Below, piece by piece: positions 2,394 through 22,479 of a stretch of DNA of 34,522 nucleotides (positions within the stretch are counted from its first letter, which is position 1; every line of letters begins with the position of its first letter). The notes under the pieces were generated by a model. That model worked only from the letters and a program-made list of their open reading frames with translations, made no database searches and had not been told where the DNA came from. The DNA comes from Chthonomonadaceae bacterium (GTDB lineage: Bacteria > Armatimonadota > Chthonomonadetes > Chthonomonadales > Chthonomonadaceae). Position numbers and translations under genes: made by a program. The stretch is from contig DASRGZ010000093.1 of assembly GCA_035650735.1 (NCBI GenBank), positions 1 to 34,522 of the forward strand. Reading direction: 5' to 3'.

Positions 2394-2501
2394 GCGGCGA
2401 TTGGGTCGGCGATGTATCCGGCGAAAAGGACGGCGAACTGAGCACGTTTCAACCGGCGAAATGGGCATAGATTCGAGCGGCGTTGACAGATCTGCTCTAT
2501 G

Positions 2502-5500
2502 GTTTCAATTCCACGCTGGTTCGATTAAAGGTAGAGATCATCGCCAAAGCCAACCTGGCCATCTATTTGTTTCAATTCCACGCTGGTTCGATTAAAGGCG
2601 CATACAATGTAGGGACGATCCTGATCGTCGTGATGTTTCAATTCCACGCTGGTTCGATTAAAGTTGTGCTCATCGTCGCGTTTCTGCTCTTGAGTCGCGG
2701 TTTCAATTCCACGCTGGTTCGATTAAAGCGCTTCCCCCGAGGCCGATCTGTGTTCCAAGTGGTTTCAATTCCACGCTGGTTCGATTAAAGCTTCCCCCCA
2801 GATGCTGACGCCAAATGTCAGTATGAATAGGGTTTCAATTCCACGCTGGTTCGATTAAAGGAGCTGGGCGGCGAGATTATCGAAGGCGACGACAAGGGTT
2901 TCAATTCCACGCTGGTTCGATTAAAGCCTGGCCCTATCCAGCCCGGAGAGCCGCCCATGACAACGTTTCAATTCCACGCTGGTTCGATTAAAGCAGCGCC
3001 AGAGGCGCCGCCTCCGCAAGCGGGGCCATGTTTCAATTCCACGCTGGTTCGATTAAAGTGAACTGGAACGCGCGCATGGTCTGCCAGCTCACCTGTTTCA
3101 ATTCCACGCTGGTTCGATTAAAGCCCCAGCTAAAAAAAGGAGAGGAGGAACGAAAAATGTGTTTCAATTCCACGCTGGTTCGATTAAAGTGTTGCCGCTC
3201 TGCCAGGGCGGATCGCACCAAGCTGGTTTCAATTCCACGCTGGTTCGATTAAAGCTTGACCGCGCCAGCGAGTGCGACGCACTCGACCCTGTTTCAATTC
3301 CACGCTGGTTCGATTAAAGGCTGGGCCGCGATCGACGCCAAGCGGCGCTGGCTGCGGTTTCAATTCCACGCTGGTTCGATTAAAGGCCTCGCAGTCGCCC
3401 AACTACGCCAACCTGATCAACTGTTTCAATTCCACGCTGGTTCGATTAAAGTCGAGCTCGGCGGCGAGATTATCGAAGCGCAAGACAGTTTCAATTCCAC
3501 GCTGGTTCGATTAAAGACGCGCGCGGGCGCGCGTGGAGGAAGGGGATTATAGGTTTCAATTCCACGCTGGTTCGATTAAAGCAATTGCGCTGCTTCCACA
3601 GGGAACGCAGAAACTCGGTTTCAATTCCACGCTGGTTCGATTAAAGGCCGCCCGGTCGCGGTCGGGCAAAAGCTCGTTCAGGGTTTCAATTCCACGCTGG
3701 TTCGATTAAAGCTTGACCGCGCCAGCGAGTGCGACGCACTCGACCCTGTTTCAATTCCACGCTGGTTCGATTAAAGCGAAACCGAGCCAGCCCCTGGATC
3801 GACCCGCTGCCAATGTTTCAATTCCACGCTGGTTCGATTAAAGAAGCGTCTGCCCGACCGCGACCGGGCGGCGTAGGCGGGTTTCAATTCCACGCTGGTT
3901 CGATTAAAGTCAAACTGCTCCACGATGCTTGACCAGGCATTTTCGGTTTCAATTCCACGCTGGTTCGATTAAAGGCCTTTACGATTGCGCAGCGAGGTCT
4001 GGATAGCACGAGTTTCAATTCCACGCTGGTTCGATTAAAGTCGTGCAAAACGCCTGTCGCGTCAGCCATCGCGAGCAGTTTCAATTCCACGCTGGTTCGA
4101 TTAAAGCTTGAAGGCGACGACAAGGCCGTCGCGAGCGAAAGGAGTTTCAATTCCACGCTGGTTCGATTAAAGGTCGGCCTCCAGGGCGCGCAGGCCGCTG
4201 AAAGGTATCTGTTTCAATTCCACGCTGGTTCGATTAAAGGTGCCGCCGCGCACGATGACCGTGCGGGCATAGGTGTTTCAATTCCACGCTGGTTCGATTA
4301 AAGCTGCTCTGCGCACCAGCAGGCGAACTCATGCAAAATGGGTTTCAATTCCACGCTGGTTCGATTAAAGTGTCGTCGCCTTCAAGAAGATCGCCGCCCA
4401 GCTCGACGGTTTCAATTCCACGCTGGTTCGATTAAAGGAGGTTTTTCCGCCGATGATATGCACGCCGTTCATGCGTTTCAATTCCACGCTGGTTCGATTA
4501 AAGCCGCCTACGCCGCCTACGCCTACGCCCGCGACGCCGAGTTTCAATTCCACGCTGGTTCGATTAAAGGCCGCCCGCGCGGGCGCCTTCGGCGGGCGAA
4601 CCTTGGTTTCAATTCCACGCTGGTTCGATTAAAGTGTGGACGCGGAGCTTATCAAGTGGACGTATACCGAGTTTCAATTCCACGCTGGTTCGATTAAAGA
4701 GCGCCTGCCGCCGCATGGCCTCCATGGGATGACCGGTTTCAATTCCACGCTGGTTCGATTAAAGGTCGTCGCCTTCAAGAAGATCGCCCCCCAACTCGAC
4801 CGTTTCAATTCCACGCTGGTTCGATTAAAGACCGACAGGCACGTGGCAAGGACGGCGACGATTGCAGGTTTCAATTCCACGCTGGTTCGATTAAAGCAGC
4901 CAACCCTGGGCGGCCTGGGCGGCGTTGTTGGTGGCGGGTTTCAATTCCACGCTGGTTCGATTAAAGCGTGACGCGCAAAGCGCTGCTCAAGCGCGCCATT
5001 AGGTTTCAATTCCACGCTGGTTCGATTAAAGGAGGCGGAGCTGGAACCGTCTTCCCTCTCTTCGCCTTGTTTCAATTCCACGCTGGTTCGATTAAAGCTT
5101 CTCCGGCTCGCCGTTGAAGCCAGGCAGCATCCCTTGTTTCAATTCCACGCTGGTTCGATTAAAGCTTGATGCTGTCCCAGGTCGGCCTGGGCCTGCTCCA
5201 GTGTTTCAATTCCACGCTGGTTCGATTAAAGCAGGTCTGGGATGCGTTGGGGTGGGCGGATGCGCGGGTTTCAATTCCACGCTGGTTCGATTAAAGTAGG
5301 CGATGCCCGATGCCTTGAGGTGGCAGGAAGGAGTTTCAATTCCACGCTGGTTCGATTAAAGTTGTGCGAGTGGGAGCGCGAGGCGCTTCCCTGCCAAGTT
5401 TCAATTCCACGCTGGTTCGATTAAAGCCGCTCAGGTTCACGCCGATACCCCGCACAACCGAGAGTTTCAATTCCACGCTGGTTCGATTAAAGGAGTCGGC

Positions 5501-7721
5501 GGCGGTGAGAGCTAAAGCGTTGTTCACGAGTTTCAATTCCACGCTGGTTCGATTAAAGCCTCGACTGACCGCATGAGCAACCTGAGTGGCAACGGTTTCA
5601 ATTCCACGCTGGTTCGATTAAAGCCGGCGTGCTCGATATGGATGCCGCGCCGGTTGGCGGTTTCAATTCCACGCTGGTTCGATTAAAGGGCGCGTGCCGC
5701 AACTGACCGGCCAGAGAGAGCACGGTTTCAATTCCACGCTGGTTCGATTAAAGCGTCCCCGTGCCCGTCTCCACTGCTCGGTTTGCTTCGTTTCAATTCC
5801 ACGCTGGTTCGATTAAAGGGTCAATCCTTGCCTTTCGCGTAAGGCGGCCAGCCACGTTTCAATTCCACGCTGGTTCGATTAAAGCAAATTGAGGCTCAAC
5901 TGGCCTCCGCAATCGTGATCAGTTTCAATTCCACGCTGGTTCGATTAAAGTCGCGCCACTGGCACTGGAGAGGGTATCAATGGTTTCAATTCCACGCTGG
6001 TTCGATTAAAGCTGCTCAATCGCCCGCTCTACATGAGCGAGTACGCGCGTTTCAATTCCACGCTGGTTCGATTAAAGCCTTTTTCCTGGCCATCCCTCTG
6101 TTGATCTTTATCGGTTTCAATTCCACGCTGGTTCGATTAAAGCATGTGCCACTGCCCGCCGGCGGTCAGGTACTCATCCGGTTTCAATTCCACGCTGGTT
6201 CGATTAAAGTGGAATTGCCAGCACGCGCCGGGTCTGCTATACTGTGTTTCAATTCCACGCTGGTTCGATTAAAGTCACAGCTTCAGTTACCCTTACCCTC
6301 GCTCGTTCCAGGTTTCAATTCCACGCTGGTTCGATTAAAGGATCAATCCAACCGAGAACTATGGCGACAGCCTGCTCAGTTTCAATTCCACGCTGGTTCG
6401 ATTAAAGTGGTCAGCACGCTGCTAAAGCTCGCTCCCTCGTCCTGTTTCAATTCCACGCTGGTTCGATTAAAGGTCTGGCTCTCCCCTGCCGATCTCAAAG
6501 CCGGTAAGCGGTTTCAATTCCACGCTGGTTCGATTAAAGGGCTACCACGTCCCCGCGCCAGACCGGCGTACCATGTTTCAATTCCACGCTGGTTCGATTA
6601 AAGACGACTTCTACAAGGGCCAGTGGATCGCGTTTCGCAGGTTTCAATTCCACGCTGGTTCGATTAAAGAACGCCAAACGACAGAGGAGGCGGCGCCTTC
6701 ATCGGGTTTCAATTCCACGCTGGTTCGATTAAAGGACCAGGTGGGCAGCTTCACCGCCGTCTCCTCCTCAAGTTTCAATTCCACGCTGGTTCGATTAAAG
6801 GATGCTCAGGCCAGCGGGTACGGCGCAAAGAGTTATGTTTCAATTCCACGCTGGTTCGATTAAAGTCTGTTCGCGCTCGCGGGCTTCGATAAGGTCAAAT
6901 TGTTTCAATTCCACGCTGGTTCGATTAAAGCAGACCACGTACATCTATTTGTTCGAGTCTTCCCTAGTTTCAATTCCACGCTGGTTCGATTAAAGGAGGA
7001 AAAGGAGGCGAACACTCATGCCGCCTCATAGTCGTTTCAATTCCACGCTGGTTCGATTAAAGGGTCTCCATCTGCCCCGCGATCACCGCCCGGATCGCCT
7101 GTTTCAATTCCACGCTGGTTCGATTAAAGCCTGGCGCGCAAGGAGCGCATCCTCCGCCTTCTTTAGTTTCAATTCCACGCTGGTTCGATTAAAGGTTGCC
7201 CGCTGTGCCAAAGCCCGCCAGGTTTGCCAGGTTTCAATTCCACGCTGGTTCGATTAAAGCAGGTCATCGCGCCAGTTGTTGGAGTCCAGCAGTTCCGTTT
7301 CAATTCCACGCTGGTTCGATTAAAGTCTTTCGCATATTTCGCTTATTTCGCATGGTCTTAAGTTTCAATTCCACGCTGGTTCGATTAAAGTTTTCAAGAC
7401 AACCGCGAGCTTCGCTTTGTCGCTGGCAAGTTTCAATTCCACGCTGGTTCGATTAAAGCTGCTGTGGTTTTGCTTCCAAATAAGCCAAATAACATTGTTT
7501 CAATTCCACGCTGGTTCGATTAAAGCCATAGAGACGCTGAAGGGGTTGAAGCCTACACTGGGTTTCAATTCCACGCTGGTTCGATTAAAGTATCTCCTCC
7601 TCTTAGAGTATTTCCTGCATCTTCTTTGTTTCAATTCCACGCTGGTTCGATTAAAGTCTGTTCGCGCTCGCGGGCTTCGATAAGGTCAAATTGTTTCAAT
7701 TCCACGCTGGTTCGATTAAAG
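2502..7721 (-). CRISPR. CRISPR array, 80 repeats of 29 bp and 79 spacers of about 32-41 bp (manual count)
   Basis: Repeat GTTTCAATTCCACGCTGGTTCGATTAAAG on +, equal to CTTTAATCGAACCAGCGTGGAATTGAAAC on -. The ATTGAAAC 3' end is typical of Cas6-processed I-B/III repeats. The leader is inferred at the cas2 side. A 13-bp remnant (2489-2501) sits between the IS and the first repeat. Confidence 0.98.
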
Positions 7722-7902: not shown

Positions 7903-8166
7903 TCAGAAGAACTGGCTTACTGGCAACTTTTCCTTGCCAATTACCTGCCTGCCGGCCCAGCGCACCTCCCGCAGCACCCAGATGAGCACCGAGTCTACCT
8001 CCAGGTCCATCCGCTTGGCTAACCCTGCCTTCATACTCTCCAATTTCGACTCCGGCAGGTCGCCTTCGAAGACTGAGTTCTGCACCCGGGGCAGGTAGCG
8101 CTTGAGGAACTGACAGATACGGCTGACCCGCTCCTCGGCAATATCGTAGACCACAATCACATACAT
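7903..8166 (-). CDS. cas2: CRISPR-associated endonuclease Cas2
   Basis: 87 aa; MYVIVVYDI and VQNSVFEG motifs. Confidence 0.97.
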   Translation of the reverse strand: MYVIVVYDIAEERVSRICQFLKRYLPRVQNSVFEGDLPESKLESMKAGLAKRMDLEVDSVLIWVLREVRWAGRQVIGKEKLPVSQFF

Positions 8167-8249: not shown

Positions 8250-9428
8250 TTACCACCAGGCCCGAAACGCCCGGTAGGTCTCTAGGCCCGTCAGATGCCG
8301 GATCAGCTTGTAGCACTCCAGCCGGATCAGGTGACGATACGAGACATGCCGCCCCAACCTGCGATGTTTGATGGTCGTCCCTAGCCGCTCTTCTAGCGCC
8401 GCCAAAAACAGCTTCTTGCCCACATCCGTCAGATAGCAGCCGTTCAGGGAGGTGTCGAAGTGCTCCGGCTTGAGCTGGCCCGTGTTGACCAGACGGAAGA
8501 TAGCCCGGTCCACCAAGAGCGGCTTGAAGATCTCCGACAGGTCCAGGGCCAGCGAGAACCGTCGTGCTCCCGGTTCATGCAGATAGGAGATGGTAGGCGT
8601 CAACTGCGTGCGGTAGATCTCGCTCAGGCAGACGGTATAGAGCAGGGAGTTGCCGAAAGAGATCAGCGCATTAATCTCGTTGTCCGGGGGACGACGCACC
8701 CGTTGCGTGAACTCCCAGTCTGCCGAGAGGATATGCCGCCACGCCTGGTAGTAGCGCTCCCGCATCTTGCCTTCCAGGCCCCGCAGGACATTAACCTCCG
8801 TCTGGTCTGCAATCAGGGCGGCCAGCCCCGTGATGACAGCGTGCAGGTGCTCCAGCGAGGAGGGAGCGGCCTCGAACGCCACCGTTGAGGTCAGCGGGTC
8901 CGGCTCCTGGGCGGACGGTTCGGATAAGGGCAAGTCCATCCCGGCATCTACGGCGGCCTCCTTGTCGGCATCGATGGGCACGCCCGTGCTGGCGCTCTCT
9001 GCACCGACTTCGCCCAAAGGCTCGGCCTCCGCCTCGGCGCTCTGGCCCCGACGGCGGCTGTAGTAGCCGACGTTACGCAGCATCGAGTGGGCCGAAGCCT
9101 GCACCAGTTCCCGCACAAGCGCCAGGCGCTGGGGCGCTTGGGAATAGTGCTCGACCTGCCGGACCAGCAGGTAGCCGGAGTGGAGGTACTCGCGCGGATA
9201 GTAGCTGCCGGCATAGAAGCCGTAGTAGTTGAAGACATGCAGGACGACCTTCTTCTGGGACAGGAAGTTGAGAAGCTTGGTATTGATGTCTACCTCGCCG
9301 TAGAGATAGAGGCTCTCCACGTCCTCGATGGGCACAGGCTTCTTTTCTCCGTTGGCGTTCTCGATGGTAAGGGTGTTGGCCTCGCGCTTGACCCGGCCAT
9401 TGGACAGGACATAGTAGTTTTTTGACAT
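8250..9428 (-). CDS. cas1: Cas1 (type I-B-like) with a ~60-aa acidic insertion
   Basis: NYYGFYAGSYYPRE, RRPPDNEINALISFGNSLLY, SYLHEP, LALDLSEIFKPLLVDR. Confidence 0.97.
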   Translation of the reverse strand: MSKNYYVLSNGRVKREANTLTIENANGEKKPVPIEDVESLYLYGEVDINTKLLNFLSQKKVVLHVFNYYGFYAGSYYPREYLHSGYLLVRQVEHYSQAPQRLALVRELVQASAHSMLRNVGYYSRRRGQSAEAEAEPLGEVGAESASTGVPIDADKEAAVDAGMDLPLSEPSAQEPDPLTSTVAFEAAPSSLEHLHAVITGLAALIADQTEVNVLRGLEGKMRERYYQAWRHILSADWEFTQRVRRPPDNEINALISFGNSLLYTVCLSEIYRTQLTPTISYLHEPGARRFSLALDLSEIFKPLLVDRAIFRLVNTGQLKPEHFDTSLNGCYLTDVGKKLFLAALEERLGTTIKHRRLGRHVSYRHLIRLECYKLIRHLTGLETYRAFRAWW

Positions 9429-9434
9429 AGGACA

Positions 9435-10553
9435 TTACCCCTGACCATAGCGCCGATTTAAATACTCAATCACGGCCAGCTTCTGTGCTTTTGTCTTTGC
9501 TAGAGTCGCTATGGCGAACCGCGCGCCAAACCCACTTCGATCTCGATATTCACCGACTACCTCATCATCATTAGGCCGCAAGTAAAACACCCGGTCCCTT
9601 ATTCCACGCTGCTTATCATAAGGTAAAGAACGACAAGAGACAATCCAGGCTGTCTCGCGCCAGACCTTTTCCACATAATCATGAAATCCATTGGGATAAT
9701 GGTCATCGGGAAAGGTCGGTTTGCGTCTCTCTTTTTCTAAGGGTATTGCTGGCAGCGTCTTTTCCAAAGGATAGCGCAAGCGAAAACCTTCCAGATACAA
9801 TTGTCCCATAGCAGACAGGCCGATATAACGTTGTTTGTCTACCTCAACTTCCTCTACCAGAGGTAAAAGTGCCTCAGGAACTTCGTCCATGAACGGAATT
9901 GCATCCTCCGTCTCCAGCGCCAAGAGTGTTCCGGCCTCACGCCCCAACAGTTCGTAATCGAATGCAACCGGCATGGGTGGTAGGGCAATCACGCCAGGAA
10001 AATCTTCGTGCTTATAGTAAACGGGAATACCTATCGCCTGCCCGATGATTGCCGACAGGGCGATCTGCGCTTTATAGCCGCCAGTCGCGTTGAAAGCGAC
10101 CCACTCCGAACCACCTGCATTGCGCGTGATTTCGGCCACTTTTTGCACCAGGCGGCGCAGACCCGTTCGGCGAAACCGCTCCTCATTCTCCGCCTGTAAA
10201 CCTTCGATAGTGTGACAAAGAACGCGATGTCCTTGTGCTTCATAGTAGTTGTGCATCAAGGCCTGCATTTGCGAACCTTCCTTAGTGTCGGACAGGCAAA
10301 AATGCAGTGAGGCCGATTCCATGACCAGATGCCGACGATGTATCAACTCGTAGATTGTATTAATCTCTGCTCCACATATCCGCTCGGTCGGCGTTATGTC
10401 CTGCAACAGGCGCGCCGTCCGATGCCAATCCTCCGCTAAGAACGCTGCCGCCAAAGGCGTATCACCTGCCGCGTCGCTCGACGCCAATCTTGTTAAGTTT
10501 GCTAGCAGGCTTGCGCCTACTGTCGTAATCAACGTAGACTTCATCCTTTTCAT
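9435..10553 (-). CDS. CARF-domain CRISPR-associated protein, APE2256/Sso1393 (Crn1-like) family, with an extra C-terminal domain
   Basis: TTVGASLL, GAEIN, SDTKEG, NATGGYK, VYYKHE.F and LPPMP motifs; about 170 aa follow the CARF core. Confidence 0.85.
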   Translation of the reverse strand: MKRMKSTLITTVGASLLANLTRLASSDAAGDTPLAAAFLAEDWHRTARLLQDITPTERICGAEINTIYELIHRRHLVMESASLHFCLSDTKEGSQMQALMHNYYEAQGHRVLCHTIEGLQAENEERFRRTGLRRLVQKVAEITRNAGGSEWVAFNATGGYKAQIALSAIIGQAIGIPVYYKHEDFPGVIALPPMPVAFDYELLGREAGTLLALETEDAIPFMDEVPEALLPLVEEVEVDKQRYIGLSAMGQLYLEGFRLRYPLEKTLPAIPLEKERRKPTFPDDHYPNGFHDYVEKVWRETAWIVSCRSLPYDKQRGIRDRVFYLRPNDDEVVGEYRDRSGFGARFAIATLAKTKAQKLAVIEYLNRRYGQG

Positions 10554-10560
10554 TCCCTTC

Positions 10561-11508
10561 TTACAGACGCATCGGTACCGCTAATCCAAACATCGTGTGG
10601 ATAGTAGTAATGCCGCGTTGGCGAAGTGCCTGGCACTCTGCTGCGGGCAGAAACGCCTCCATCGGCAGGGCGCGCCCGACAAAGAGGCGTTCCGGCGAAC
10701 TGTAAAAGCAGGCTCCCGGTCGCAGCAATACCAGAGGCCGCTTGAAGACGTTCGCCAGCCCAAACTCCGGCCCGACCTTGCCATATTTGATGAAGACCTC
10801 CCAGAACCCCTCCGTCGGATCCCCCGGCGCAGGCTGATAGGAAGATAGAACCAAGACCCCATTGGCGCCCGCGAAGGCGTCCTCCAGCCATGCCATCGGT
10901 TCCAGGGCGGTAGGCGGGGCAAAAGCGCCTTTTCCCGTTGTCGTATCCGCCCCAAAACCGCGATAGGAGAGATACCTGAAAAGCTCCAGGAGAGAGGCGC
11001 GGTAGGTATCCGCCACACGCACATAGACCGAAAGATAAGGCGTCTGTGCGAGGCCCGCGAACCCGGTATTGAGAAAAGTTTCCGCACAAGCGAAAAGGCC
11101 GCCTTCCCCGGTGGTATCCGTCACGCGACTCAACTGGTTGTGCAGGCGATCCACCGTTTGAAACGCCTTATCTGGCAACAATTCGCCGGCGGCAATCTGC
11201 CTGCCTTCCTGGACAGCCCGAAACGCCTCCGAACGCAGCCAGCGCGCGCGCTTGATGGCCTTCCGCTCTGCCTCCCCCCAATCCTGCGTACGCAGGGCCA
11301 GCGGAACCGGCAGCAGGTCGCCGGGAAAAGCATCCGATAGCACGAAAGGAGGCCGGCCTTGCAAGGCCGGCTCCAAAATCTCCTTGTGCAGTCTTTCGGC
11401 TCCCCAATAGCAGGCCGCCATCCCACAGAGCATCCCAAACAGCGTATCCGCCTGCCAGGGCGTCATCCAGGCCGAGAGCGGACGCAGTTTAAGCCGATAG
11501 AGTCGCAT
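10561..11508 (-). CDS. csm4: Type III-A Csm4 (Cas5 group)
   Basis: MRLYRLKLRPLS..TPWQADTLFG, LSDAFP, G-rich loop GFGADTTTGKGAF. Start moved to the ATG at 11508. Confidence 0.9.
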   Translation of the reverse strand: MRLYRLKLRPLSAWMTPWQADTLFGMLCGMAACYWGAERLHKEILEPALQGRPPFVLSDAFPGDLLPVPLALRTQDWGEAERKAIKRARWLRSEAFRAVQEGRQIAAGELLPDKAFQTVDRLHNQLSRVTDTTGEGGLFACAETFLNTGFAGLAQTPYLSVYVRVADTYRASLLELFRYLSYRGFGADTTTGKGAFAPPTALEPMAWLEDAFAGANGVLVLSSYQPAPGDPTEGFWEVFIKYGKVGPEFGLANVFKRPLVLLRPGACFYSSPERLFVGRALPMEAFLPAAECQALRQRGITTIHTMFGLAVPMRL

Positions 11509-12178
11509 TCGCCTCGCTCCATTCGTCCGGAAACTTATCCAGAGAGATACGAGCCACCTTGACGTTCCGGAAGGCCACGCGACCATATCCCTTACTCACG
11601 CCTGCGCCGAGTCCCGTCTTCTCTACTAGATACATGCCATATCGCACAACCTTGAAGAGCGCATGCCCCCCTGTTTGCTCCTGGTAGGTAAAGTTCTGAT
11701 CCAGGTCCCATACTTGAACGCCGATATTGAGATTAAAGGTCGAGCCACTAACAACACGTTCTACTTTGCGCGGATGCAGCGCCGTACCAACCCTGCGATC
11801 AATGATATTCTCTGTCTTGGTTTCAATCTGCCCGCCACTTACCAACGTTGCGTCGCGTACGATGATGCGGCTTGGCCCGAGATCGTGTTGCGCCTTTTTA
11901 TGCGGCCCGAAAATGCGGCAGATGGGGCATTTTTCGCCACCGCAGTCGCACGGCTCGTTTCCATCCTGGCCACTGAATTTCCCTTCCGCCTTCTCCAGTT
12001 CCGAACGCATCTTCCCTTTGAGCGAGGAGCCGGGAATATAGGGCTGGAGCGTTACCGGATGCTTGATGCAGGTCAGGTCGGTTCCGCCAATCTGCAGGAG
12101 ATTATCGCTGCCGCCTATCCGCAGCCCGCTCAGGCACTCAATCGTCGCCTGAATAGTAAAATGCTCTACCTTCTTCAT
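11489..12178 (-). CDS. csm3: Type III-A Csm3 (Cas7 group RNase)
   Basis: GLRIGG..IGGTD (catalytic Asp position retained), PYIPGSSLKGKMRS, Cys cluster, GLGAGVSKGYG. Start moved to the ATG at 12178. Confidence 0.93.
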   Translation of the reverse strand: MKKVEHFTIQATIECLSGLRIGGSDNLLQIGGTDLTCIKHPVTLQPYIPGSSLKGKMRSELEKAEGKFSGQDGNEPCDCGGEKCPICRIFGPHKKAQHDLGPSRIIVRDATLVSGGQIETKTENIIDRRVGTALHPRKVERVVSGSTFNLNIGVQVWDLDQNFTYQEQTGGHALFKVVRYGMYLVEKTGLGAGVSKGYGRVAFRNVKVARISLDKFPDEWSEANATLSA

Positions 12179-12180
12179 CC

Positions 12181-12663
12181 CTATTTCCTTTCGTTGTCCA
12201 GGTATGCCGCGCCGAATCCAACCAACGCCTCGAAATGCCGCAGAAAGCCCTCGAGGAAATCCTTTTGGTTCCTGACGGCTGCGACATTTTGGCGGATAAA
12301 ATCGTGGAAAAGCTTGGGTATCTTCTTTTGCTCTTTGCCAAAGGCGTCTGCTGCCGCGACATCCAGCATAGCGAAGTCCGCCCGTTTGGTTTCCCATGAG
12401 GCCGTTTTAGCGCGGAGTTCGGCCTCGATTGCGCGGCAGTGACTAAAGAAACGCCTTAACTGATTGGATGTCAGCTTGGGTCTGGCACGTTGTGCCATTT
12501 CCCGGATAAGCGGCTCGACCTTCTCGCGGCGAACATAGTCCAGCCGCAGGCAGCCTTCGGCATCGAAATAGCCGTCGCGAAGATAGCCAGGCCATAGTTG
12601 ATCCAGCGTCCGTTCGGGGGTTCTGTCCTGGTAGCTTCCTCCGCTTCCGATCGGTCGGCTCAT
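12181..12663 (-). CDS. csm2: Type III-A small subunit Csm2 (Cas11)
   Basis: 160-aa helical protein between cas10 and csm3; LTSNQLRRFF and FEALVGF motifs. Confidence 0.88.
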   Translation of the reverse strand: MSRPIGSGGSYQDRTPERTLDQLWPGYLRDGYFDAEGCLRLDYVRREKVEPLIREMAQRARPKLTSNQLRRFFSHCRAIEAELRAKTASWETKRADFAMLDVAAADAFGKEQKKIPKLFHDFIRQNVAAVRNQKDFLEGFLRHFEALVGFGAAYLDNERK

Positions 12664-14258
12664 GGTTGCTCTCCTGTGGATGTGCGTGTAGCCATCAGTG
12701 CGTAGCGCAGAATGGCAGGCAGGTAGCGCGTCTCCGTGCGCTGCTGGGCGTCAAAGTCGCGCGTGATCTGGTCTATCCACTTTCGCAGCGCCCGTCGGTT
12801 AGGATCGCGATCCTCGCTGCGGGGATAGTTGCGTTCAACATGGGAGACCAGGCGGGCCGTTGTCAGCGGTTCCTTTTCGCGCGCCTCGGTCATCTGTAGC
12901 AGCGTCTGCAACCAACCACGTTCCGCTGCGTTGCCGGAAACCCATCGCGCCAGGCACTTGGCCCAGTGGGTAATGCGCTCATGCTGCTCCCACTTCCAGA
13001 CCTGTCCGAGGGTGGCGAACTGATTGCGCCCCTGCTCTGGCGGCTCGGTTTTGGCCTTGTCAAGCAGGCGATCCGCCTGTTCTACGGCGCGACGAATGGG
13101 CGTTTTGCGGGGAACGATCGCCATTCCCGCGCTGATGGTCAACTCAAGATCAGCGAATGCCTGCCGGAACAGTTGATGGACATGGAAGGCATAATCGAAA
13201 AGAACATTCCAGGGGCCGACCAGCAACAGATCGTCTCCGCCGGAGAAGATGGTATAGATACTCGCCCATTCCGGTTTGGCCAGTTCGCTATCCAGGCGCC
13301 AGGCGAAAAAGTCGTCAAGCCGGGCGCTGAGGACGGCAAGGGGTTGGAGGTCTTCGGCTTTTTGAAGCTGTTGCTGGATGGTTTTGCCGAGCGAGTCGGC
13401 GTCCATTTTGAGAATGCCCAGGTAGGGGGCGCCGAGGGAGGCGGCGGCGAGAGCATCGAAATCGAACGGGCTGCCGTCTTGTTCGCGCGGAATGTATCGG
13501 CTCAGCGGCCGTAGCAGAACGGACGTAGAGCCTCTGTACCGGGCCGATCCTCCGGAAAGGCTGAAAAGGCAGAGGTCTTCTGGAAGGGGAGCCGGTTCCG
13601 AAGATTCGAGTTTCACTCCAAGGCCAAGGATGTCGAACGGTGTATTTGCAGAAGGGGAACGCACGACCATCCAGTTCGCACGAGGCAGTTCAGCGCCTAT
13701 TTTCAGGTCGAGGGCGCAGGATACGCACAGGGAGAGCGGTTGGTTGTCGGCGTCGGCTTCTCTCTGTGTTGCCCTGCGGCGCTGGCAGATAGCACAGGGG
13801 GGCGTGATGGGATCGAGAATGAGAAAAGACGGATCCCAGATGCCGTTGGCGGTAAACAGAGCGGAGAGCGGTCGGCATTTCGCCTGCTGGAGAGCTTGCA
13901 TCGCGCGATGATATTGTTCCTGCGGAGTACCCTCTTCTTCCTCAAGAAGGAGCGACAGCCGCACTCTGGCGCCAGAATGCTCCAGGAGCCAGCGGGCTAT
14001 CTCCTGCCCTTCGGCCTCCACGTTTTGCCGGGCAGCTAGGCTCAAAGACGGGCCTTGCAGGATGAATTTCCCGGCGGCGCGTAACAGTATCCTATCGAGC
14101 GGCCACCCGGCTGCGCGCAGGAGACGCAGGGCGGCGATCTCGGCCACGATTTGCAGGAAAAAAGAGCGGGCGCGGAGGCGTCGTGACTGTCCGCCGGCCT
14201 GGTCAGCAATATCGAGCAGATAGTCCTGGATGCCGGATAGGTCGCCAACAAGGAGCAT
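12660..14258 (-). CDS. cas10: Cas10/Csm1 lacking the HD nuclease domain, cyclase motifs intact
   Basis: Begins at Palm1 (LLVGDLSGIQDY, LRARSF); CxxC..CxxC; Palm2 KMDADSLG and FSGGDD; GGAGG RBS directly upstream. Confidence 0.93.
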   Translation of the reverse strand: MLLVGDLSGIQDYLLDIADQAGGQSRRLRARSFFLQIVAEIAALRLLRAAGWPLDRILLRAAGKFILQGPSLSLAARQNVEAEGQEIARWLLEHSGARVRLSLLLEEEEGTPQEQYHRAMQALQQAKCRPLSALFTANGIWDPSFLILDPITPPCAICQRRRATQREADADNQPLSLCVSCALDLKIGAELPRANWMVVRSPSANTPFDILGLGVKLESSEPAPLPEDLCLFSLSGGSARYRGSTSVLLRPLSRYIPREQDGSPFDFDALAAASLGAPYLGILKMDADSLGKTIQQQLQKAEDLQPLAVLSARLDDFFAWRLDSELAKPEWASIYTIFSGGDDLLLVGPWNVLFDYAFHVHQLFRQAFADLELTISAGMAIVPRKTPIRRAVEQADRLLDKAKTEPPEQGRNQFATLGQVWKWEQHERITHWAKCLARWVSGNAAERGWLQTLLQMTEAREKEPLTTARLVSHVERNYPRSEDRDPNRRALRKWIDQITRDFDAQQRTETRYLPAILRYALMATRTSTGEQP

Positions 14259-14282
14259 AGCGCTTTCCTCCCTCTCTTGAGG

Positions 14283-14810
14283 TTATCCCCAACATAACTC
14301 TTGATAGGCGCACTTCTTACAGAGGGGCATGGGCTCGGGCACGCGGGGTGGGATGGGCTGCTCGCGCGTCTGCTGTACTCCGGTGAGGATGTGCTCGATC
14401 TCGGCCTCGTACTCCGGGGTCAGCGCCACCTCCTGCCGACGCCGCTGCTTGGGATAGTCAATCAGGCCAGTGGTCTCGACGCCTTTCTCATGCTTGAGGT
14501 AGTAGAGGTAGTAGAGCAACTGGTAGAGGGTGGCTTTCTGGCCGCCTTTGCTCTTCTTGATCTCATGGACGGCTCCGTCCTCGGTGAAGTCCAGGCGCAG
14601 GAGGTCGTCCAGGAGGAGGTCCTTGCGCCGCTGTTGGGGATAGCTTTCCTGGTGGAGCAGCTGGCCCAGGGCCACGTTCTCCTGCCCGACGTTGCCCTGG
14701 ACGTGTTCCTGCTCCATCCCATGAGCAAACCACCAGAGCTTGCGGGGGCAGAGCACATAGTAATGTACTTCCGTTCCCCCAATGCGCAGATCAGCCAAAG
14801 ATGCGTTCAT
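14283..14810 (-). CDS. cas4: Cas4 exonuclease
   Basis: YYVLCPRKLW, EIKKS, QLLYYLY, CKKCAYQELCW (4-Cys Fe-S cluster). Confidence 0.95.
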   Translation of the reverse strand: MNASLADLRIGGTEVHYYVLCPRKLWWFAHGMEQEHVQGNVGQENVALGQLLHQESYPQQRRKDLLLDDLLRLDFTEDGAVHEIKKSKGGQKATLYQLLYYLYYLKHEKGVETTGLIDYPKQRRRQEVALTPEYEAEIEHILTGVQQTREQPIPPRVPEPMPLCKKCAYQELCWG

Positions 14811-17100
14811 ACGCGGCCTCCCGTTCAAATGAGCGCTCCGTCTCAGGCTCGTTGAGCAGACCTAGTTCCGCATCATAGCGGCGATCTACATAATAGACGT
14901 GGTTGGTCTCGTCGTAATCCACCGGCTCACGCATTATGCTAAACGTGGCCGAAGACAGACCTGCGATAAACCCGGCAGCATCGAAGTATCGCTTCTCCTG
15001 GATCGCCTTTTGATACAAATGCTTGAAACGGATAGGAACGACATTATAGTTGTCGAAAAGGTCATAGAAATCGGCATCGCTGCCGCTATAGCCTGGACGC
15101 AAGTTCTGTAGCGTGCTTTCAAAGGAACTCCGTGCCGTATCGTACTTTTGCTGCTCCTCCACAGTATAGCCGCCCTCATAGGCGCGCTCCACCCATTCCC
15201 TTTCTACCGAGGCGAAGAGTTCACAGCCGTCTGGCACATTTCTGCATGTTGCCTCAATGCGCTCCAGACTGTAAACGTGCTTGACCGCCTTTTCCTCAAA
15301 CTGGGTAGCGACATGGACAGGCACAGGACAGCCGTGCTGGTTTAGGCGGTTAACGCGCCCGAATCGTTGAAGCAAAGCATCCACCGGCGCAATCTCCGTG
15401 TAAACAACATCAAAGGAGACATTGAGCGACACTTCCACAACCTGGGTCGAAACAAGGATATCCGCGGCCGGAACTTGTTGCTGGACGATGTCTAGCGAAT
15501 CGGGAAAGGCGGAAAGGCGCTTCTCCTTTTCCATGCGGTCCTTGCTGATAAAGCGGCTGTGCAGCAAGTCCACTCGCTTTCCGTGCAACGCTTCGCATGC
15601 CAATAAGCTGCGGTAAATCTCCTGCGCCTGGGCAACGCGATTACAGACTACCAGCACCTTCCGTCCTGCCAGCGCATCGGCAACGATTTGCGTCATCATA
15701 TCTTCCAGGCGGCAGGCGTGCAGATGCAATCGATGGCGCGCCGTCCGAAGCAGTCGGGCGGCACGGGGATCACTCCCCTCTACAGTTACAATGTGGCTAG
15801 TACCCAGCGCATTTTGCAGCCGCTTTTGGAGGAAGTCGGGGAATGTCGCCGACATGAACAAGAAGCGAACGCTCATGCGTCGCAGCCTGTGAACGCTGAT
15901 TTCAATAAGAGCGGCGACGTGGGCATCATAGGCATGTACCTCATCAAAAATTACCAGGCCTCCCAATAACTCCGCTAGGCCGATCTCGAAGAAGCGGCAT
16001 CCGAACATGAGCTTGAGCAACTGGTAAGGAGTCAGCACCTTGATGGGGCGGTAAAACTGCTCTGTCTGATCCATGCGCTTTCGCGCTGTCCGACTGGCTG
16101 CCTCGTAATTACTTCCATCGAAGTGACGGGCAAACTCCTGGAGCGCTGCCCGATGATGCAGGATACCGATGTTCTCCTCACCGAAGAGCGCTTGCAGACG
16201 CTCTGCCATTTTGTTGATGCTGGCCTGATAGGGAAGCACATAAAAGATACGCTCGCCGCCACGCCGGTTTGCCAACGCCCAATGTAGGGCCGCTTCCGTC
16301 TTGCCCGCCCCGGTTGGCGCTTCTAGCAGGGCGCAGCCTTCAACAGCCTGTATCCTCTTCTGAAATCCTTCTGCCGCACGCACCTTGCCGCCATCCAGCG
16401 CTGTGAGGGGGCCGATCAGTCCCGCGCTGGCAAGGTGGTCACCGGCCATGAGGAGGCCGCGCGCCAGGATCCAGGGTAAACTATCCAGGGTTATGTCGCT
16501 GATATGGGTTAGTATTTCATCAAGCGCATTGCCGGCCTCATGCAAATCCGGCAACTCCTGCGGCGATCCGGGAAGGGAAGCGGGCAGGGGCGGCAGACGA
16601 CCTTCGTCTTGGGCGGTCTTAAGGAAATCGACCAGCCATGTCCAATGTAGGGCCAGCTCTGCAACCTTTCGCCGCCACTTCACCCCCTCTCCCATGTCGA
16701 AGTACTCCCTATCCAATCCCTTCCCGAAAATAGGAGCCAGTTTCCGGTCGTCCAGCGTGCGGTGGTGCGTAAGAACGGAGAACAACAAACGGGAATCGCA
16801 TCGGTCGTGCAGGCCGGTCGCCAGCAAGAGGACCGCAGAAAGCGCTTCATGGCGATACTCCCAGGAAGGCGCTTTTTTGTCTTTCGGTGCCGTTACCATA
16901 TCTTGAAATCCGCTTGCCGCCTTTCCCAGATCATGGAAAAGGGCAGCGTAACGCAGCATCTCGGTGAACCCCTCTGGCACAACCTCGGAAAGAGAAAGGG
17001 ATAGCGCTGCCGTAAGTTGTTCTACAGCGGCATAAACTTCAAGGGTATGTTCATGCAATGTCTGCGGCGGATTTGATTTGGCGAACGGCTCTGCGCTCAT
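14791..17100 (-). CDS. cas3: Cas3 HD nuclease-helicase
   Basis: LHEH, HDLGK, HEALS, APTGAGKT, DEVH, MSAT, TQVVEVS, QRFGRVNR. Confidence 0.97.
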   Translation of the reverse strand: MSAEPFAKSNPPQTLHEHTLEVYAAVEQLTAALSLSLSEVVPEGFTEMLRYAALFHDLGKAASGFQDMVTAPKDKKAPSWEYRHEALSAVLLLATGLHDRCDSRLLFSVLTHHRTLDDRKLAPIFGKGLDREYFDMGEGVKWRRKVAELALHWTWLVDFLKTAQDEGRLPPLPASLPGSPQELPDLHEAGNALDEILTHISDITLDSLPWILARGLLMAGDHLASAGLIGPLTALDGGKVRAAEGFQKRIQAVEGCALLEAPTGAGKTEAALHWALANRRGGERIFYVLPYQASINKMAERLQALFGEENIGILHHRAALQEFARHFDGSNYEAASRTARKRMDQTEQFYRPIKVLTPYQLLKLMFGCRFFEIGLAELLGGLVIFDEVHAYDAHVAALIEISVHRLRRMSVRFLFMSATFPDFLQKRLQNALGTSHIVTVEGSDPRAARLLRTARHRLHLHACRLEDMMTQIVADALAGRKVLVVCNRVAQAQEIYRSLLACEALHGKRVDLLHSRFISKDRMEKEKRLSAFPDSLDIVQQQVPAADILVSTQVVEVSLNVSFDVVYTEIAPVDALLQRFGRVNRLNQHGCPVPVHVATQFEEKAVKHVYSLERIEATCRNVPDGCELFASVEREWVERAYEGGYTVEEQQKYDTARSSFESTLQNLRPGYSGSDADFYDLFDNYNVVPIRFKHLYQKAIQEKRYFDAAGFIAGLSSATFSIMREPVDYDETNHVYYVDRRYDAELGLLNEPETERSFEREAAYERIFG

Positions 17101-17780
17101 GGGCGTCTCAGTATCCTTTCATCGAACAGTGGGACAGCAAGCGATTCCTCTGCTTCGCGATAAAGCAGATCGGGAACGGAGACTGGCTGTGTTCCTTGCA
17201 AGCTGTCGAGGACGTGGAAGGGTTTTACGGCCAGGGGCGTTCGTTCTGGAGCCACTCCGTAGAAGGTCGGAAAGCTCATCACCCGCGACCGCAAGCGCCT
17301 GTCCTGTACTGGAAACGGCAACAGGATACCGGAGACATCCGCCTCCTGCATAAGCTCCAGCGTAGCGCGGCGATGTGCCGTGACAGTCGCAACATCCTGC
17401 GAGCGCCCTAAAAGCAGCGGAAAACGTGGTCGCAGAAACGCATCTGCTACTGCTCCCGGCGCAAGATACAGCGCCAGCCTTGCGCCAAAGAGAAACTGCC
17501 GGTTGACGACGTTGGTCTTAGGAGCGTACTGGCTCTTCACCCATACCGGCCCTCCCTGCTCATAGATGATGATCGTTTCCAGATCTTCCGCCTGGGCATC
17601 ATAGGCAAATCGGTACGCGACCCATGTCTCTCCGGGAGGTATCTCGCGCCCTGCGGCGGCAGCAAGCAGGCCGTATATGGTTGCCGGGGGAGGCACCGGC
17701 GCGGTGACCTGATATCCCATCATTCCGGGAACACGGAAGGAGGCAGTATAGGCCTGAATGTCAATGCGAACCGCCTCCAT
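17097..17780 (-). CDS. cas5: Cas5 (type I-B)
   Basis: TASFRVP, PPPATIYGLL, LLGRSQD. Start moved to the ATG at 17780. Confidence 0.92.
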   Translation of the reverse strand: MEAVRIDIQAYTASFRVPGMMGYQVTAPVPPPATIYGLLAAAAGREIPPGETWVAYRFAYDAQAEDLETIIIYEQGGPVWVKSQYAPKTNVVNRQFLFGARLALYLAPGAVADAFLRPRFPLLLGRSQDVATVTAHRRATLELMQEADVSGILLPFPVQDRRLRSRVMSFPTFYGVAPERTPLAVKPFHVLDSLQGTQPVSVPDLLYREAEESLAVPLFDERILRRP

Positions 17781-17784
17781 AGCT

Positions 17785-18912
17785 TTACCCCAGTCTTTCC
17801 GGTACGACGCCGCTCTCGCGGGCCATGCGCGCAATTTCCCGTATGGCCTGCCCAGGCGTGCCGACCATGAACGAAACCCCCGCTACGCCAGATCGCAATC
17901 TTTCCAGCACCTCGGCCTCGTTTCCCAGAATGCCGGGACGATAGCCGAAGAAGAGCCTTCCGCCTGCAAGGAGCCGATCACGGTAATCGGTGAGAACAGA
18001 CTCAAGGCGTGTAAGGTTTAGAACGACGGTTCCATTCTCACCCGGAGCAAACAGGTTCTGGAAGGGCGCATTGCCGCCATCCAGGAAGCCAAGCAAGATA
18101 ACCGCCGGAACGACATCCGAAAGGTTGCGCGTCAGGTTGGCTCCGTATCGCAGATGGGCCAGAGCCTCTACTGCTTGCGCGACTCGTTCCCTGCGGGTTT
18201 CGAACGGAAGCGCCAGTACCTTCGGCCTGGAAGCGCCGTCCATCTCCCGAACCACAGTGACGCCCTCCGTCGGAGTACCGGTCGGCAGATCGCGCATCGG
18301 GCCGCACTCAAACCGTCCCACATCCGTTAGCGAAAGAGTGAAGACCCCCTGCATGAGCGCAGTATAATGCTCATGTTCAAACGGCACCATATTCGGGTTT
18401 TCCACCGGCAGGTCGCGTGAGAAATGCCCAAAATCCGAAGTAATGACGTTAGGCAGCACGGAAACCAACAAGCTGTTCTTCAACGGGCTGACGCGCCGTT
18501 GGGTTCCGCCTGCCTCCGCGCTTTCTTCGACTTGCGCTGTTCCCCCTTCCGCTAGCGATGATTCGGAAGCTTCCTCCTCCGCCCTTCTGCCTCTCCTTCT
18601 AGGAGCTTTCTTGGCAGCCATATAGCCGAACACATCATCATCCGCATAGCGGATGGGATCGCCCTGCGTGTAGGCAGACTTGGCCTCGCGGGTGACCGGG
18701 CTGGGTTCCCACCCGAAGTCGGCATAAAGCACCTCACGCCACCAACGGCGAATGGCCTGACCGGAGATATAGGGATAGGAATTTCTTCCTACCTGGATCT
18801 GCTTGACAACTACCGCGTTATCGAGGCGTTGACCGGCAGCATTTCCGGCATTGTTCAAAGCCGCGCCGTTGGCCTCAACTAACATCGCGGCAGTCAGAAC
18901 AGGGTAAATCAT
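17785..18912 (-). CDS. cas7: Cas7 (Cst2/DevR family, type I-B)
   Basis: ALNNAG, YPYISGQAIRRWWR, DDDVFGYM, RVSPLK. Confidence 0.93.
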   Translation of the reverse strand: MIYPVLTAAMLVEANGAALNNAGNAAGQRLDNAVVVKQIQVGRNSYPYISGQAIRRWWREVLYADFGWEPSPVTREAKSAYTQGDPIRYADDDVFGYMAAKKAPRRRGRRAEEEASESSLAEGGTAQVEESAEAGGTQRRVSPLKNSLLVSVLPNVITSDFGHFSRDLPVENPNMVPFEHEHYTALMQGVFTLSLTDVGRFECGPMRDLPTGTPTEGVTVVREMDGASRPKVLALPFETRRERVAQAVEALAHLRYGANLTRNLSDVVPAVILLGFLDGGNAPFQNLFAPGENGTVVLNLTRLESVLTDYRDRLLAGGRLFFGYRPGILGNEAEVLERLRSGVAGVSFMVGTPGQAIREIARMARESGVVPERLG

Positions 18913-21468: not shown

Positions 21469-22479
21469 TCAGGGATTTTCGGGCTCGGCATAGAGAGCGG
21501 CCAGAGCCTGGACTTCCTGAGCCATGCGCGCCCGCAGTTCTGGTCCGCCCAATACCTGCGCGTGCGAGCGCCACGAGAGCAGCTCCCGCACGATCCCGTC
21601 CAGCCCTCGCACCTGGCCCCGCAGCAGGATGGCTCCCGGCACGGCAGGGTCCTCGGTGATCCGGGCCGCAAACGGCCAGCGACGCGCGCGGGCAAAGGGG
21701 GCCACCTCCGCATCAAAGCGCACCACAACCGCCACCGGCGTCCCGCCCCGCAGACCGCCCACCACCCCCTGGCTGGTCAGCTTCCAGGGCCGTTTGATAA
21801 AGGTCTGTCCGGTGGGAACGGCCTCATAGATACGGTCGAGGGCGAAGACGAGCACCTGTTGCCGGCGATGGCACCAGGCGTGCAGCTCCAGATACCGCCC
21901 CTCCCGCCGATCTAAGGCATAAGGGTCAACACAACGGCGCTGGCAGGTCTGGCTGCGGTAGCTCTCGTAGAGGATCTCCAGCGTCTGCCGTTGCTGGATA
22001 GCCTGGAGCAACACGCCCATCGGAGCGTGGGAGTAGTCGCGGGCCAGGCCCTGGGTCTCGGCGATGCCGCCGGCCAGCGCCTCCATCTGCGCGCGCAGCC
22101 CCGGCGTCAGCCCGGCACTCACCTTCTCCAGGGCCGCCCGGATCTCTTCGGCAAAGGGCAGCGGCGCGGAGGTATTGCTCAGCAGGCCGCGCACCAGCGA
22201 GAGCGCCAGGACATCGGTGGCCGACAGGGAGGCGACGGGCAGCTTCCAGCCCTTCTCCGGCAGGACATAGGCACGGAGGGCCTGGTCGTAGCGAAGAGGC
22301 ACCTGGGCTTGCTGGAGGCAGTCGAGGTCGCGCTGGATGGTCTTTTTGGAGCAGTCGCAGGCAGCTGCCAGTTCCGAAAGGCCCAGGGGTTCAAAGGGAG
22401 CGCGGGAGGCGAGCAGGGTGAGGATACGGAAGAGCCGCACGGCCCGCGGATAGGTGTCGGAGTTGAAGTAAACGGCCAT
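21469..22479 (-). CDS. HTH-WYL-WCX transcriptional regulator
   Basis: wHTH ELAAACDCSKKTIQRDL; WYL core Y.S....RRCVDPYAL..YLELHAWCHRRQQVLVFALDRI; C-terminal VLGGPELR. Confidence 0.92.
   Translation of the reverse strand: MAVYFNSDTYPRAVRLFRILTLLASRAPFEPLGLSELAAACDCSKKTIQRDLDCLQQAQVPLRYDQALRAYVLPEKGWKLPVASLSATDVLALSLVRGLLSNTSAPLPFAEEIRAALEKVSAGLTPGLRAQMEALAGGIAETQGLARDYSHAPMGVLLQAIQQRQTLEILYESYRSQTCQRRCVDPYALDRREGRYLELHAWCHRRQQVLVFALDRIYEAVPTGQTFIKRPWKLTSQGVVGGLRGGTPVAVVVRFDAEVAPFARARRWPFAARITEDPAVPGAILLRGQVRGLDGIVRELLSWRSHAQVLGGPELRARMAQEVQALAALYAEPENP

Follow-up and report, generated by a model that had tools for sequence, protein, structure and literature searches.

The closest described relatives of the module considered here are the canonical type III-A (Csm) CRISPR-Cas systems of Staphylococcus epidermidis, Streptococcus thermophilus, Thermus thermophilus, and Thermococcus onnurineus. 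In S. epidermidis, Csm5 caps the 3′ end of the CRISPR RNA (crRNA) and recruits PNPase, and deletion of csm5 stops 3′ maturation, with accumulation of Cas6-cut intermediate crRNAs (PMC5389561). Here, we describe a reduced Csm module of five genes from a Chthonomonadaceae bacterium (assembly GCA_035650735.1), encoded on the minus strand of contig DASRGZ010000093.1, whose positions 1 to 34,522 are referred to as the window. The Csm1–Csm4 proteins of this module pass the III-A models and align to the solved subunits of the canonical systems, and the module keeps the GGDD motif, the Csm3 aspartate, and an adjacent CARF protein. It differs from the canonical systems in that the HD domain and Csm5 are absent and that Cas6, Cas1-Cas2, and array are not part of the module itself. 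Its CARF protein matches PF09651 rather than the TIGR02710 family of Csm6.

Several known systems share part of this architecture. Cas10 proteins without HD are common, given that only 65% of III-A loci, and 39% of type III loci overall, have a recognizable HD domain (Hoikkala 2024, PMC11229360), and subtype III-A2 of the 2025 classification is likewise described as a reduced III-A variant with an active cyclase (PMC12669027). III-A2, however, is without Cas11, whereas the window keeps Csm2/Cas11 and is without HD and Csm5. A single array and adaptation set shared by two effector modules is seen in Pyrococcus furiosus, whose Cst locus has an associated Cmr module (PMC4666368), and in Marinomonas mediterranea, whose crRNA-sharing I-F/III-B synergy is cited in PMC7145637. 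In both, the type III partner is a complete Cmr, whereas that of the window is reduced, belongs to a lineage of its own, and lies inside the type I operon. The CRISPRCasTyper preprint also recognizes hybrid loci in which two interference modules go with a single adaptation module. HD-less III-A Cas10 proteins and hybrid loci are thus known separately, and the lineage described below is widespread but apparently unstudied. A prior sequence-only reading of this DNA had raised the possibility of an undescribed III-A variant; HD-less III-A Cas10 is already on record (PMC11229360), but we found no description of the lineage itself. Full-text literature searches returned no Csm lineage that is devoid of HD, Csm5, and Cas6 and nested in loci of subtype I-G or I-B, with the qualification that the supplements of PMC12669027 and PMC11229360 may list the clade. 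Mentions of Csm5 absence were found for S. epidermidis only, as csm5-deletion phenotypes (PMC5389561) and as a pulldown control (PMC9762709).

The window carries one composite operon, in which a type I-B system has a reduced III-A module inserted between cas4 and cas1 (Table 1). All four Csm proteins pass their III-A NCBIfam cut-offs, Cas10 doing so with the III-A Csm1 equivalog TIGR02578. Residues 2–525 of this Cas10 cover positions 231–753 of the 753-position profile, and in alignments to solved Csm1 chains in the PDB, the protein begins at their residues 223–254. The cas4 stop codon (TAA) occupies 14283–14285, the Cas10 ATG lies at 14258, and the spacer between them, 14259–14282, reads CCTCAAGAGAGGGAGGAAAGCGCT and includes GGGAGG. 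Upstream of the ATG, the frame is open for 8 codons (540 aa in all). As the profile match starts only at position 231 and is preceded by these few open codons, Cas10 has no HD domain and there is no room for one; profile and frame thus agree with the sequence-only reading, which had described a 532-aa Cas10 that has its own ribosome-binding site and starts 24 nt past the cas4 stop. The GGDD motif, which had also been called intact, is found at G340 G341 D342 D343 and is invariant in the 37 aligned clade members (alignment A1), as is the D286/D288 pair across the 37 homologs.

The five genes run in the order cas10, csm2, csm3, csm4, and CARF, and all five open reading frames (ORFs) are intact. 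The start of csm2 overlaps the cas10 stop by 4 nt, the csm3 ATG (12178) follows 2 nt past the csm2 stop, the csm4 ATG (11508) gives a 20-nt overlap with the end of csm3, and gaps of 7 and 6 nt separate the csm4 stop from the CARF gene and the CARF gene from cas1. Neither csm5 nor a remnant would fit into these junctions, as the sequence-only reading had held from the tight packing of the module. The start sites of csm3 and csm4, unlike in that reading, lie downstream of the starts of the longest ORFs. In PDB alignments, D34 of the window Csm3 aligns with D33 of S. thermophilus Csm3, which we take to be the catalytic residue.

Supply of csm5 in trans was also considered. The assembly spans 6.52 Mb in 224 contigs and is 97.6% complete, with 3.4% contamination. 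Over the whole assembly, the Csm5 model TIGR01899 stays below its cut-off, its two matches at E ≤ 1 having Csm3 itself as the better one, and the RAMP family PF03787 matches Csm3 only. Because TIGR01899 proved insensitive, recovering csm5 over the cut-off in only 3/10 HD-containing control genomes, we built a hidden Markov model (HMM) on three Csm5 proteins that had been verified in related loci. Against the 47,322 six-frame ORFs of the genome, this Csm5 HMM returned only a cross-match to Csm3 (E 0.06), and hence none of the three models finds a csm5 in the 6.52-Mb assembly. Genome-wide, Cas10, Csm3, Csm4, Cas6, and a CARF protein of the APE2256 family each occur once; no TIGR02710 (Csm6-type CARF-HEPN) protein was found in the genome, nor further CARF proteins of the searched families.

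The absence of the HD domain is common to a larger group of proteins. Among the 120 best homologs of the window Cas10 in a 5.8-billion-protein collection, 118 measure 487–591 aa, the exceptions being an 874-aa Cas6-Cas10 fusion and a 303-aa fragment. Scanning species-representative genomes with alignment A1 gave 80 loci (of at least 572 relatives), where a single Cas10 query had given none; 38 of these loci are HD-less and 42 HD-containing. Most of the genomes are incomplete metagenome-assembled genomes (MAGs), and one locus (L068) is from a genome flagged unpublished, which enters the tallies as a single locus and on which alone no claim rests. In the 35 loci at 32–59% Cas10 identity with a readable N-terminus, the upstream frame is short or read-through only, and loci at ≤32% identity have ~250–300 additional N-terminal residues, with L026 (32%, HD-less) marking the boundary. 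The match to the Csm1 profile starts only at positions 193–231 in the close group (13/13 scanned) and at positions 2–3 in most of the distant, HD-containing loci (7/9 scanned). L089, a relative from the same order at 53% identity, is HD-less too.

Our Cas10 phylogeny, an unrooted quick IQ-TREE inference of 71 rows with SH-like approximate likelihood ratio test (SH-aLRT) support, places the HD-less proteins in one clade (34 rows from many phyla, support 100) that unites the window with its sister L007, which comes from a MAG of the Chthonomonadales and is the nearest relative (59–60% Cas10 identity to the window). A second, HD-containing clade (17 rows, support 95) has no csm5 that we could see, while in a third, also HD-containing (20 rows, support 88), csm5 directly follows csm4 in 17 rows. 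The three csm5-negative rows of the third clade are two short contigs (L050, 3.2 kb; L059, 4.1 kb) and L076 (16.9 kb), which has no Csm-gene matches. The second clade is one of two that adjoin the HD-less clade on the tree, and it resembles the window in having csm1-csm2-csm3-csm4 without csm5; it differs in keeping HD and, usually, its own Cas6 and Cas1-Cas2. Its members come from Chloroflexota, Ignavibacteriota, and Bacillota (Calidifontibacillus erzurumensis, L065; Paenibacillus suaedae, L082).

Our Csm5 HMM finds csm5 in 17 HD-containing loci (3 of them its seeds) and in 0/38 HD-less loci, the slot being assessable in the 32 of these in which csm4 was seen. When the genes after csm4 were identified with NCBIfam (100 ORFs, 24 loci), the next gene in the HD-less clade was a CARF protein and never a RAMP. 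In the second clade (L043, L045, L047, L052, L060), it was Cas6, a TIGR02710 protein, or Cas1, and in L069, L078, and L081 it was Csm5. Since csm5 is missing in two clades and HD in one of them, the absence of csm5 is broader than the loss of HD. A single csm5 loss followed by a single HD loss would suffice if the root of this unrooted tree falls within the csm5-containing clade. Recent decay from close homologs with HD and csm5 is not what we observe, as the closest homologs are without both. Within the HD-less clade both losses are conserved, but the absence of csm5 is older and broader than the sequence-only reading had supposed, being common to the neighboring HD-containing clade. Within the order, a Cas10 match at E ≤ 1e-10 occurs in 9/40 other genomes, of which only 3 are close (51–60% identity), and the one same-genus genome (89% complete) has no match at this threshold. 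This patchy distribution is as expected of a horizontally moving defense island.

Several members of the HD-less clade carry features of their own. The 874-aa fusion (P0085) has an N-terminal Cas6 domain (PF10040, residues 171–292) at the place of HD. Directly upstream of cas10 in L018 is a 165-aa Cmr1-like RAMP (L018:9483-9980; TIGR01894, 50 bits; PF03787), which may substitute for Csm5 in that one locus. In a Planctomycetota subclade, Csm4 reaches 448–462 aa (L011:3187-4575, L013:12681-14027, L014:3878-5233, L018:12668-14041). The Csm4 model spans only the first ~265–275 residues of these proteins and leaves a C-terminal extension of ~170 aa, for which Pfam gave no match in the two proteins scanned (L011 and L013). 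The HD-less locus L015 encodes, upstream of cas10, a fusion of reverse transcriptase with Cas1 as well as a separate hydrolase of the HD_4 (RelA/SpoT-type) family (L015:3720-6476 and L015:8714-9352).

The main distinguishing feature of the HD-less lineage, which the sequence-only reading missed, is that it is nested in type I loci, mostly of subtype I-G, and has no Cas6 of its own. With local HMMs, type I effector genes were found in the same locus in 21/38 HD-less loci, of which 19 are I-G and 2 are I-B (the window and L007). The corresponding count for adjacent type I genes among HD-containing loci is 1/42 (L065 only). This context was verified with NCBIfam for 13 loci. In the I-G loci, the order Cas3g-Cas8g1/Csx17-Csb1-Csb2 immediately precedes cas10 (NCBIfam, 71 upstream ORFs in 24 loci), while Cas4g/Cas1g and Cas2 come after the CARF gene or, in L034 and L068, before cas10. 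When the count is restricted to HD-less loci whose sequence extends 5 kb or more beyond cas10 on its upstream side, 15/23 show type I genes. At the level of whole genomes, in a set of 30 HD-less genomes that are incomplete MAGs, Csb2 exceeds the cut-off in 25, the Cas3 core is matched at E ≤ 1e-10 in 27, and one or the other is present in 29. Cas6 genes belonging to the module are absent from the HD-less loci and present in L045, L047, L061, L062, L072, L082, and L071 of the second clade. The Csm module of L007 (L007:8695-15308) lies between cas1 and cas2 and has a TIGR02710 CARF protein, whereas that of the window lies between cas4 and cas1 and has an APE2256 CARF protein; the two sister Cas10 proteins thus belong to modules with different insertion points and effectors.

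We consider it probable that the module represents a conserved lineage of dependent Csm modules, without HD, Csm5, or a Cas6 of their own, that reside within type I systems and, in the window, share guides with I-B and signal to the CARF protein. According to this proposal, the I-B Cas6 would cut the shared pre-crRNA into guides with an 8-nt AUUGAAAC 5′ tag, and these guides would load both Cascade and a Cas10-Csm4-(Csm3)n-(Csm2)n-1 complex. The guides probably keep their repeat-derived 3′ end, as Csm5 is missing, and the Csm5-less complex may take up the Cas6 product without trimming, perhaps while Cas6 or Csb2 remains bound to it. On binding of a complementary transcript, Csm3 would cut the RNA and the Palm/GGDD site of Cas10 would make cyclic oligoadenylate (cOA), most likely cyclic tetra-adenylate (cA4), and this messenger would activate the adjacent CARF protein. 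Clearance of target DNA would be left to Cascade-Cas3, a division of labor that fits the type I association. The outcome would be a transcript-triggered second layer of defense on the same spacer set. The steps with counterparts among the predicted genes are the RNA-cleaving backbone, the cyclase, the cOA sensor, the single shared set of Cas6, array, and adaptation genes, and the HD-bearing Cas3 in the operon; the remaining steps we infer.

A number of points weigh against this proposal. Expression, complex assembly, and messenger synthesis are predictions from the genes, and no RNA sequencing run is listed for 9435–14258. The crRNA 3′ end would lack the cap that Csm5 usually provides, and no fold could be recognized for the CARF protein's output domain. 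The tree is a quick version, and 8 of the 23 loci with sufficient upstream sequence are without adjacent type I genes (L013, L015, L021, L022, L027, L031, L041, L064). Moreover, because the loss of HD is a single event on the tree, the counts describe one lineage rather than independent replicates, and the type I association amounts in essence to a single event in evolution, accompanied by one or more switches of context between I-G and I-B. The occurrence in two type I contexts, on the other hand, argues for a dependence on type I systems in general.

A stronger version, which we put forward as possible while rating it somewhat below an even chance, is that these modules are obligate add-ons of type I systems. 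They would borrow Cas6 or Csb2, the array, and the adaptation genes, use the same untrimmed crRNA as Cascade, and act as a pure cOA alarm, with HD lost on capture; the ceding of DNA degradation to Cas3 would explain why HD was lost when a type I locus captured the module. If this version is correct, the locus would be a distinct integrated type I/III immune unit and not two chance neighbors. Should the proposed mechanism hold, even in the more general form of a dependent lineage, the module would be the smallest natural multi-subunit type III sensor, with four protein species and no nuclease domain on Cas10. It would make a type III effector a dependent accessory of a type I system, layer DNA-targeting and RNA-sensing immunity in one operon, and provide a natural experiment on the purpose of Csm5. 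A compact signaling-only Csm that takes Cas6-cut guides without host trimming could also serve in type III-based RNA diagnostics.

The CARF protein, which is presumed to be both the cOA receptor and the effector, bears on how the module acts. Its relatives among cluster representatives number 1347 at E ≤ 0.001 and 112 at E ≤ 1e-30, most of which align along the entire length. The family profile matches Cami1, the cA4-activated CARF-RelE mRNA interferase (8phb, 8phj), with E 4.4e-32 over positions 7–260 (8phb), and the ring nucleases Sis0811 and SSO1393 with E-values of 1e-15 to 1e-18. For the AlphaFold2 (AF2) model of the window protein (mean predicted local distance difference test score, pLDDT, of 95.1), the top full-length Foldseek match is apo Cami1 (E 4e-15), with a template modeling (TM) score of 0.55. 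VIA comparison of model residues ~3–265 gives Z 21 to Cami1 and Z 18–19 to Sis0811/SSO1393. The window protein thus resembles Cami1 in its CARF and winged helix-turn-helix (wHTH) domains and differs from it in the C-terminal ~100 aa, for which no RelE similarity was detectable by Pfam, Foldseek, or VIA. Modeled alone, these last ~100 residues give an alpha-beta4-alpha arrangement (pLDDT 93.6). In searches with this domain, Foldseek returned no match at E ≤ 0.001 (best E 0.12), the wide VIA search nothing at Z ≥ 5, Pfam no family in any of 56 family members, and ESM Atlas only other CRISPR-associated clusters and DUF2103. As the C-terminal domain has no convincing match, we name the protein a Cami1/Crn1-family cOA sensor and not a Cami1.

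Two further observations concern this C-terminal domain (residues 272–372, window 9438–9740, minus strand), which is conserved with the consensus DDHxPxGF ... FGARF ... TTA. The best rows of the wide VIA search were 2H phosphoesterases, but the similarities to Usb1 (Z 4.6), CPDase (Z 3.7), and a phage phosphodiesterase (Z 3.5) are too weak for an assignment. The tails of the APE2256-type CARF proteins of L010, L013, L020, and L034 were aligned with it and are not homologous to it.

Across the HD-less clade, the slot after csm4 is occupied by TIGR02710 proteins, Card1/Can2 (L014, L019), other APE2256 proteins with unrelated tails, or, in L018, a DxTHG protein. In L041, cas10 is preceded by the gene of a SAVED protein, and Csx3/Crn3 ring nucleases occur in L010, L014, and L019. 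TIGR02710 is the T. thermophilus Csm6 type, and PDB entry 8jh1 is, by its title, that protein bound to cA4, while Can1-2 and Cami1 are listed as cA4-activated in Hoikkala 2024 (PMC11229360). The neighboring effectors of the clade are thus of cOA-dependent types, and the messenger is most likely cA4.

The CARF protein could instead be a ring nuclease or a cOA-responsive transcription factor, in which case the module would regulate or reset rather than execute; we regard this as fairly unlikely, though it is the alternative that fares best. Its CARF-wHTH part is nearly as similar to Sis0811/SSO1393 as to Cami1, its C-terminal 100 aa gave no match to RelE or another nuclease family, and the genome holds no second CARF protein of the searched families. 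In the family alignment (A2), S15 is conserved at ≥90% and K161 is invariant, a pair that may correspond to S12/K169 of Sis0811. In contrast, the best full-length structural match is an effector, sister loci have effectors of proven type at this position (T. thermophilus-type Csm6, Card1/Can2), and the C-terminal domain is conserved at full length, with most of the 112 representatives at E ≤ 1e-30 extending to residue ~370.

It is also unlikely, in our judgment, that the complex has more than four protein species, with the 3′-cap role of Csm5 taken by Cas6 on the untrimmed 3′ handle, as in type I Cascade, or by an unrecognized protein. Such a substitution would suit a lineage that has no Cas6 of its own and adjoins Csb2 (a Cas5-Cas6 fusion) or Cas6, and the S. 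epidermidis csm5 knockout does leave its intermediates untrimmed (PMC5389561). The Cmr1-like RAMP of L018 and the extended Csm4 of the Planctomycetota subclade are candidates for unrecognized substitutes, but no such additional protein is present in the window. The P0085 fusion shows that a Cas6-Cas10 linkage exists in the clade, yet it would put Cas6 at the Cas10 end of the complex and not at the 3′ end. Furthermore, the Cas6 partner differs between contexts (a stand-alone Cas6 in I-B, Csb2 in I-G), a difference that makes a single conserved interface between the proteins less likely.

That the module is a non-functional, decaying remnant of a full III-A system is very improbable. Two canonical parts are indeed missing, the distribution among relatives is patchy (9/40 genomes of the order, 3 of them close at 51–60% identity), and one close relative (G065) has its Cas10 match in two pieces. 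Against this, none of the five ORFs is disrupted and their translation is coupled, 37 homologs from many phyla share the catalytic motifs without variation, and the same architecture recurs in 32 loci; its spread over 33–60% Cas10 identity implies long-term purifying selection. Finally, the chance that the I-B/III-A juxtaposition is a metagenome assembly chimera is negligible even for an assembly of 224 contigs with 3.4% contamination, as both junctions are unbroken with gene spacings of 24 and 6 nt, L007 is nested likewise in an I-B locus and 19 other loci in I-G, and contigs of six runs from three studies, five of which may represent the source sample, hold 94–100% of the sampled words of 9435–14258.

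The dependent module that we favor sits in one uninterrupted cas operon on the minus strand, which runs from a WYL regulator through Cas2 and is followed by the array. The type I-B gene set present comprises Cas6, Cas7, Cas5, Cas3 (HD and helicase), Cas4, Cas1b, and Cas2, and the Cas6 is presumed to be the pre-crRNA processing enzyme for both effectors. Cas5b falls 3.6 bits short of its subtype cut-off (TIGR01895). Neither Pfam nor NCBIfam gives a match at E ≤ 0.01 for the ORF at the place of Cas8b, which may be a divergent large subunit.

Table 1. Features of the composite operon and its array, listed in the direction of transcription.
Feature	Positions	Strand	Evidence
WYL-domain transcription regulator (HTH + WYL + WCX), operon head	21469..22479	-	PF13280 E 1.2e-13, PF25583 E 4.7e-12
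Cas6, sole Cas6 in genome	20564..21337	-	TIGR01877 109.4 bits, cut-off 58.65
Putative Cas8b large subunit, 552 aa	18909..20567	-	position only (between cas6 and cas7)
Cas7 (Cst2/DevR), type I-B	17785..18912	-	TIGR02585 152.8 bits, cut-off 72.75
Cas5, type I-B	17097..17834	-	TIGR01895 93.1 bits, under cut-off 96.7; TIGR02593 41.5 bits, over cut-off
Cas3, N-terminal HD nuclease + helicase	14791..17100	-	TIGR01587 270.4 bits; TIGR01596 (HD) 78.9 bits
Cas4	14283..14828	-	PF01930 E 3.5e-43; TIGR00372 78.8 bits
cas4-cas10 spacer, 24 nt, GGGAGG ribosome-binding site	14259..14282	-	read directly
Cas10/Csm1, HD-less, 532 aa	12660..14258	-	TIGR02578 297.9 bits, cut-off 170
Csm2 (Cas11 small subunit)	12181..12663	-	TIGR01870 49.3 bits, cut-off 30.6
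Csm3 (Cas7 backbone RNase, predicted)	11489..12178	-	TIGR02582 151.5 bits, cut-off 90; PDB alignments; start codon read
Csm4 (Cas5)	10561..11508	-	TIGR01903 83.6 bits, cut-off 55; start codon and ribosome-binding site read
CARF-wHTH sensor, APE2256 family, ~100-aa C-terminal domain	9435..10553	-	PF09651 E 1.6e-30
Cas1 (Cas1b), type I-B	8250..9428	-	TIGR03641 431.2 bits, cut-off 304.1
Cas2	7903..8166	-	TIGR01573 45.3 bits, cut-off 24.5
CRISPR array, 80 identical 29-nt repeats	2502..7721	-	80 exact matches vs 0 expected from shuffles

The array, with 80 repeats over 2502–7721, is larger than the tandem-repeat table had suggested when the DNA was read on its own. Its repeats on the minus strand end in ATTGAAAC, as seen where the array-leader junction was read, and this end is presumably the 8-nt 5′ tag that is typical of I-B/III guides processed by Cas6. 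No degenerate terminal repeat was found within 3 mismatches in the array (2502–7721). Several of the ORFs listed in 2483–7683 are read-through of the array and not genes. At the other end of the operon, a 239-aa truncated tyrosine recombinase (22764–23483, minus strand; PF00589, matching the C-terminal part of Xer models only) adjoins the WYL regulator, and this fragment may mark past mobility of the island.

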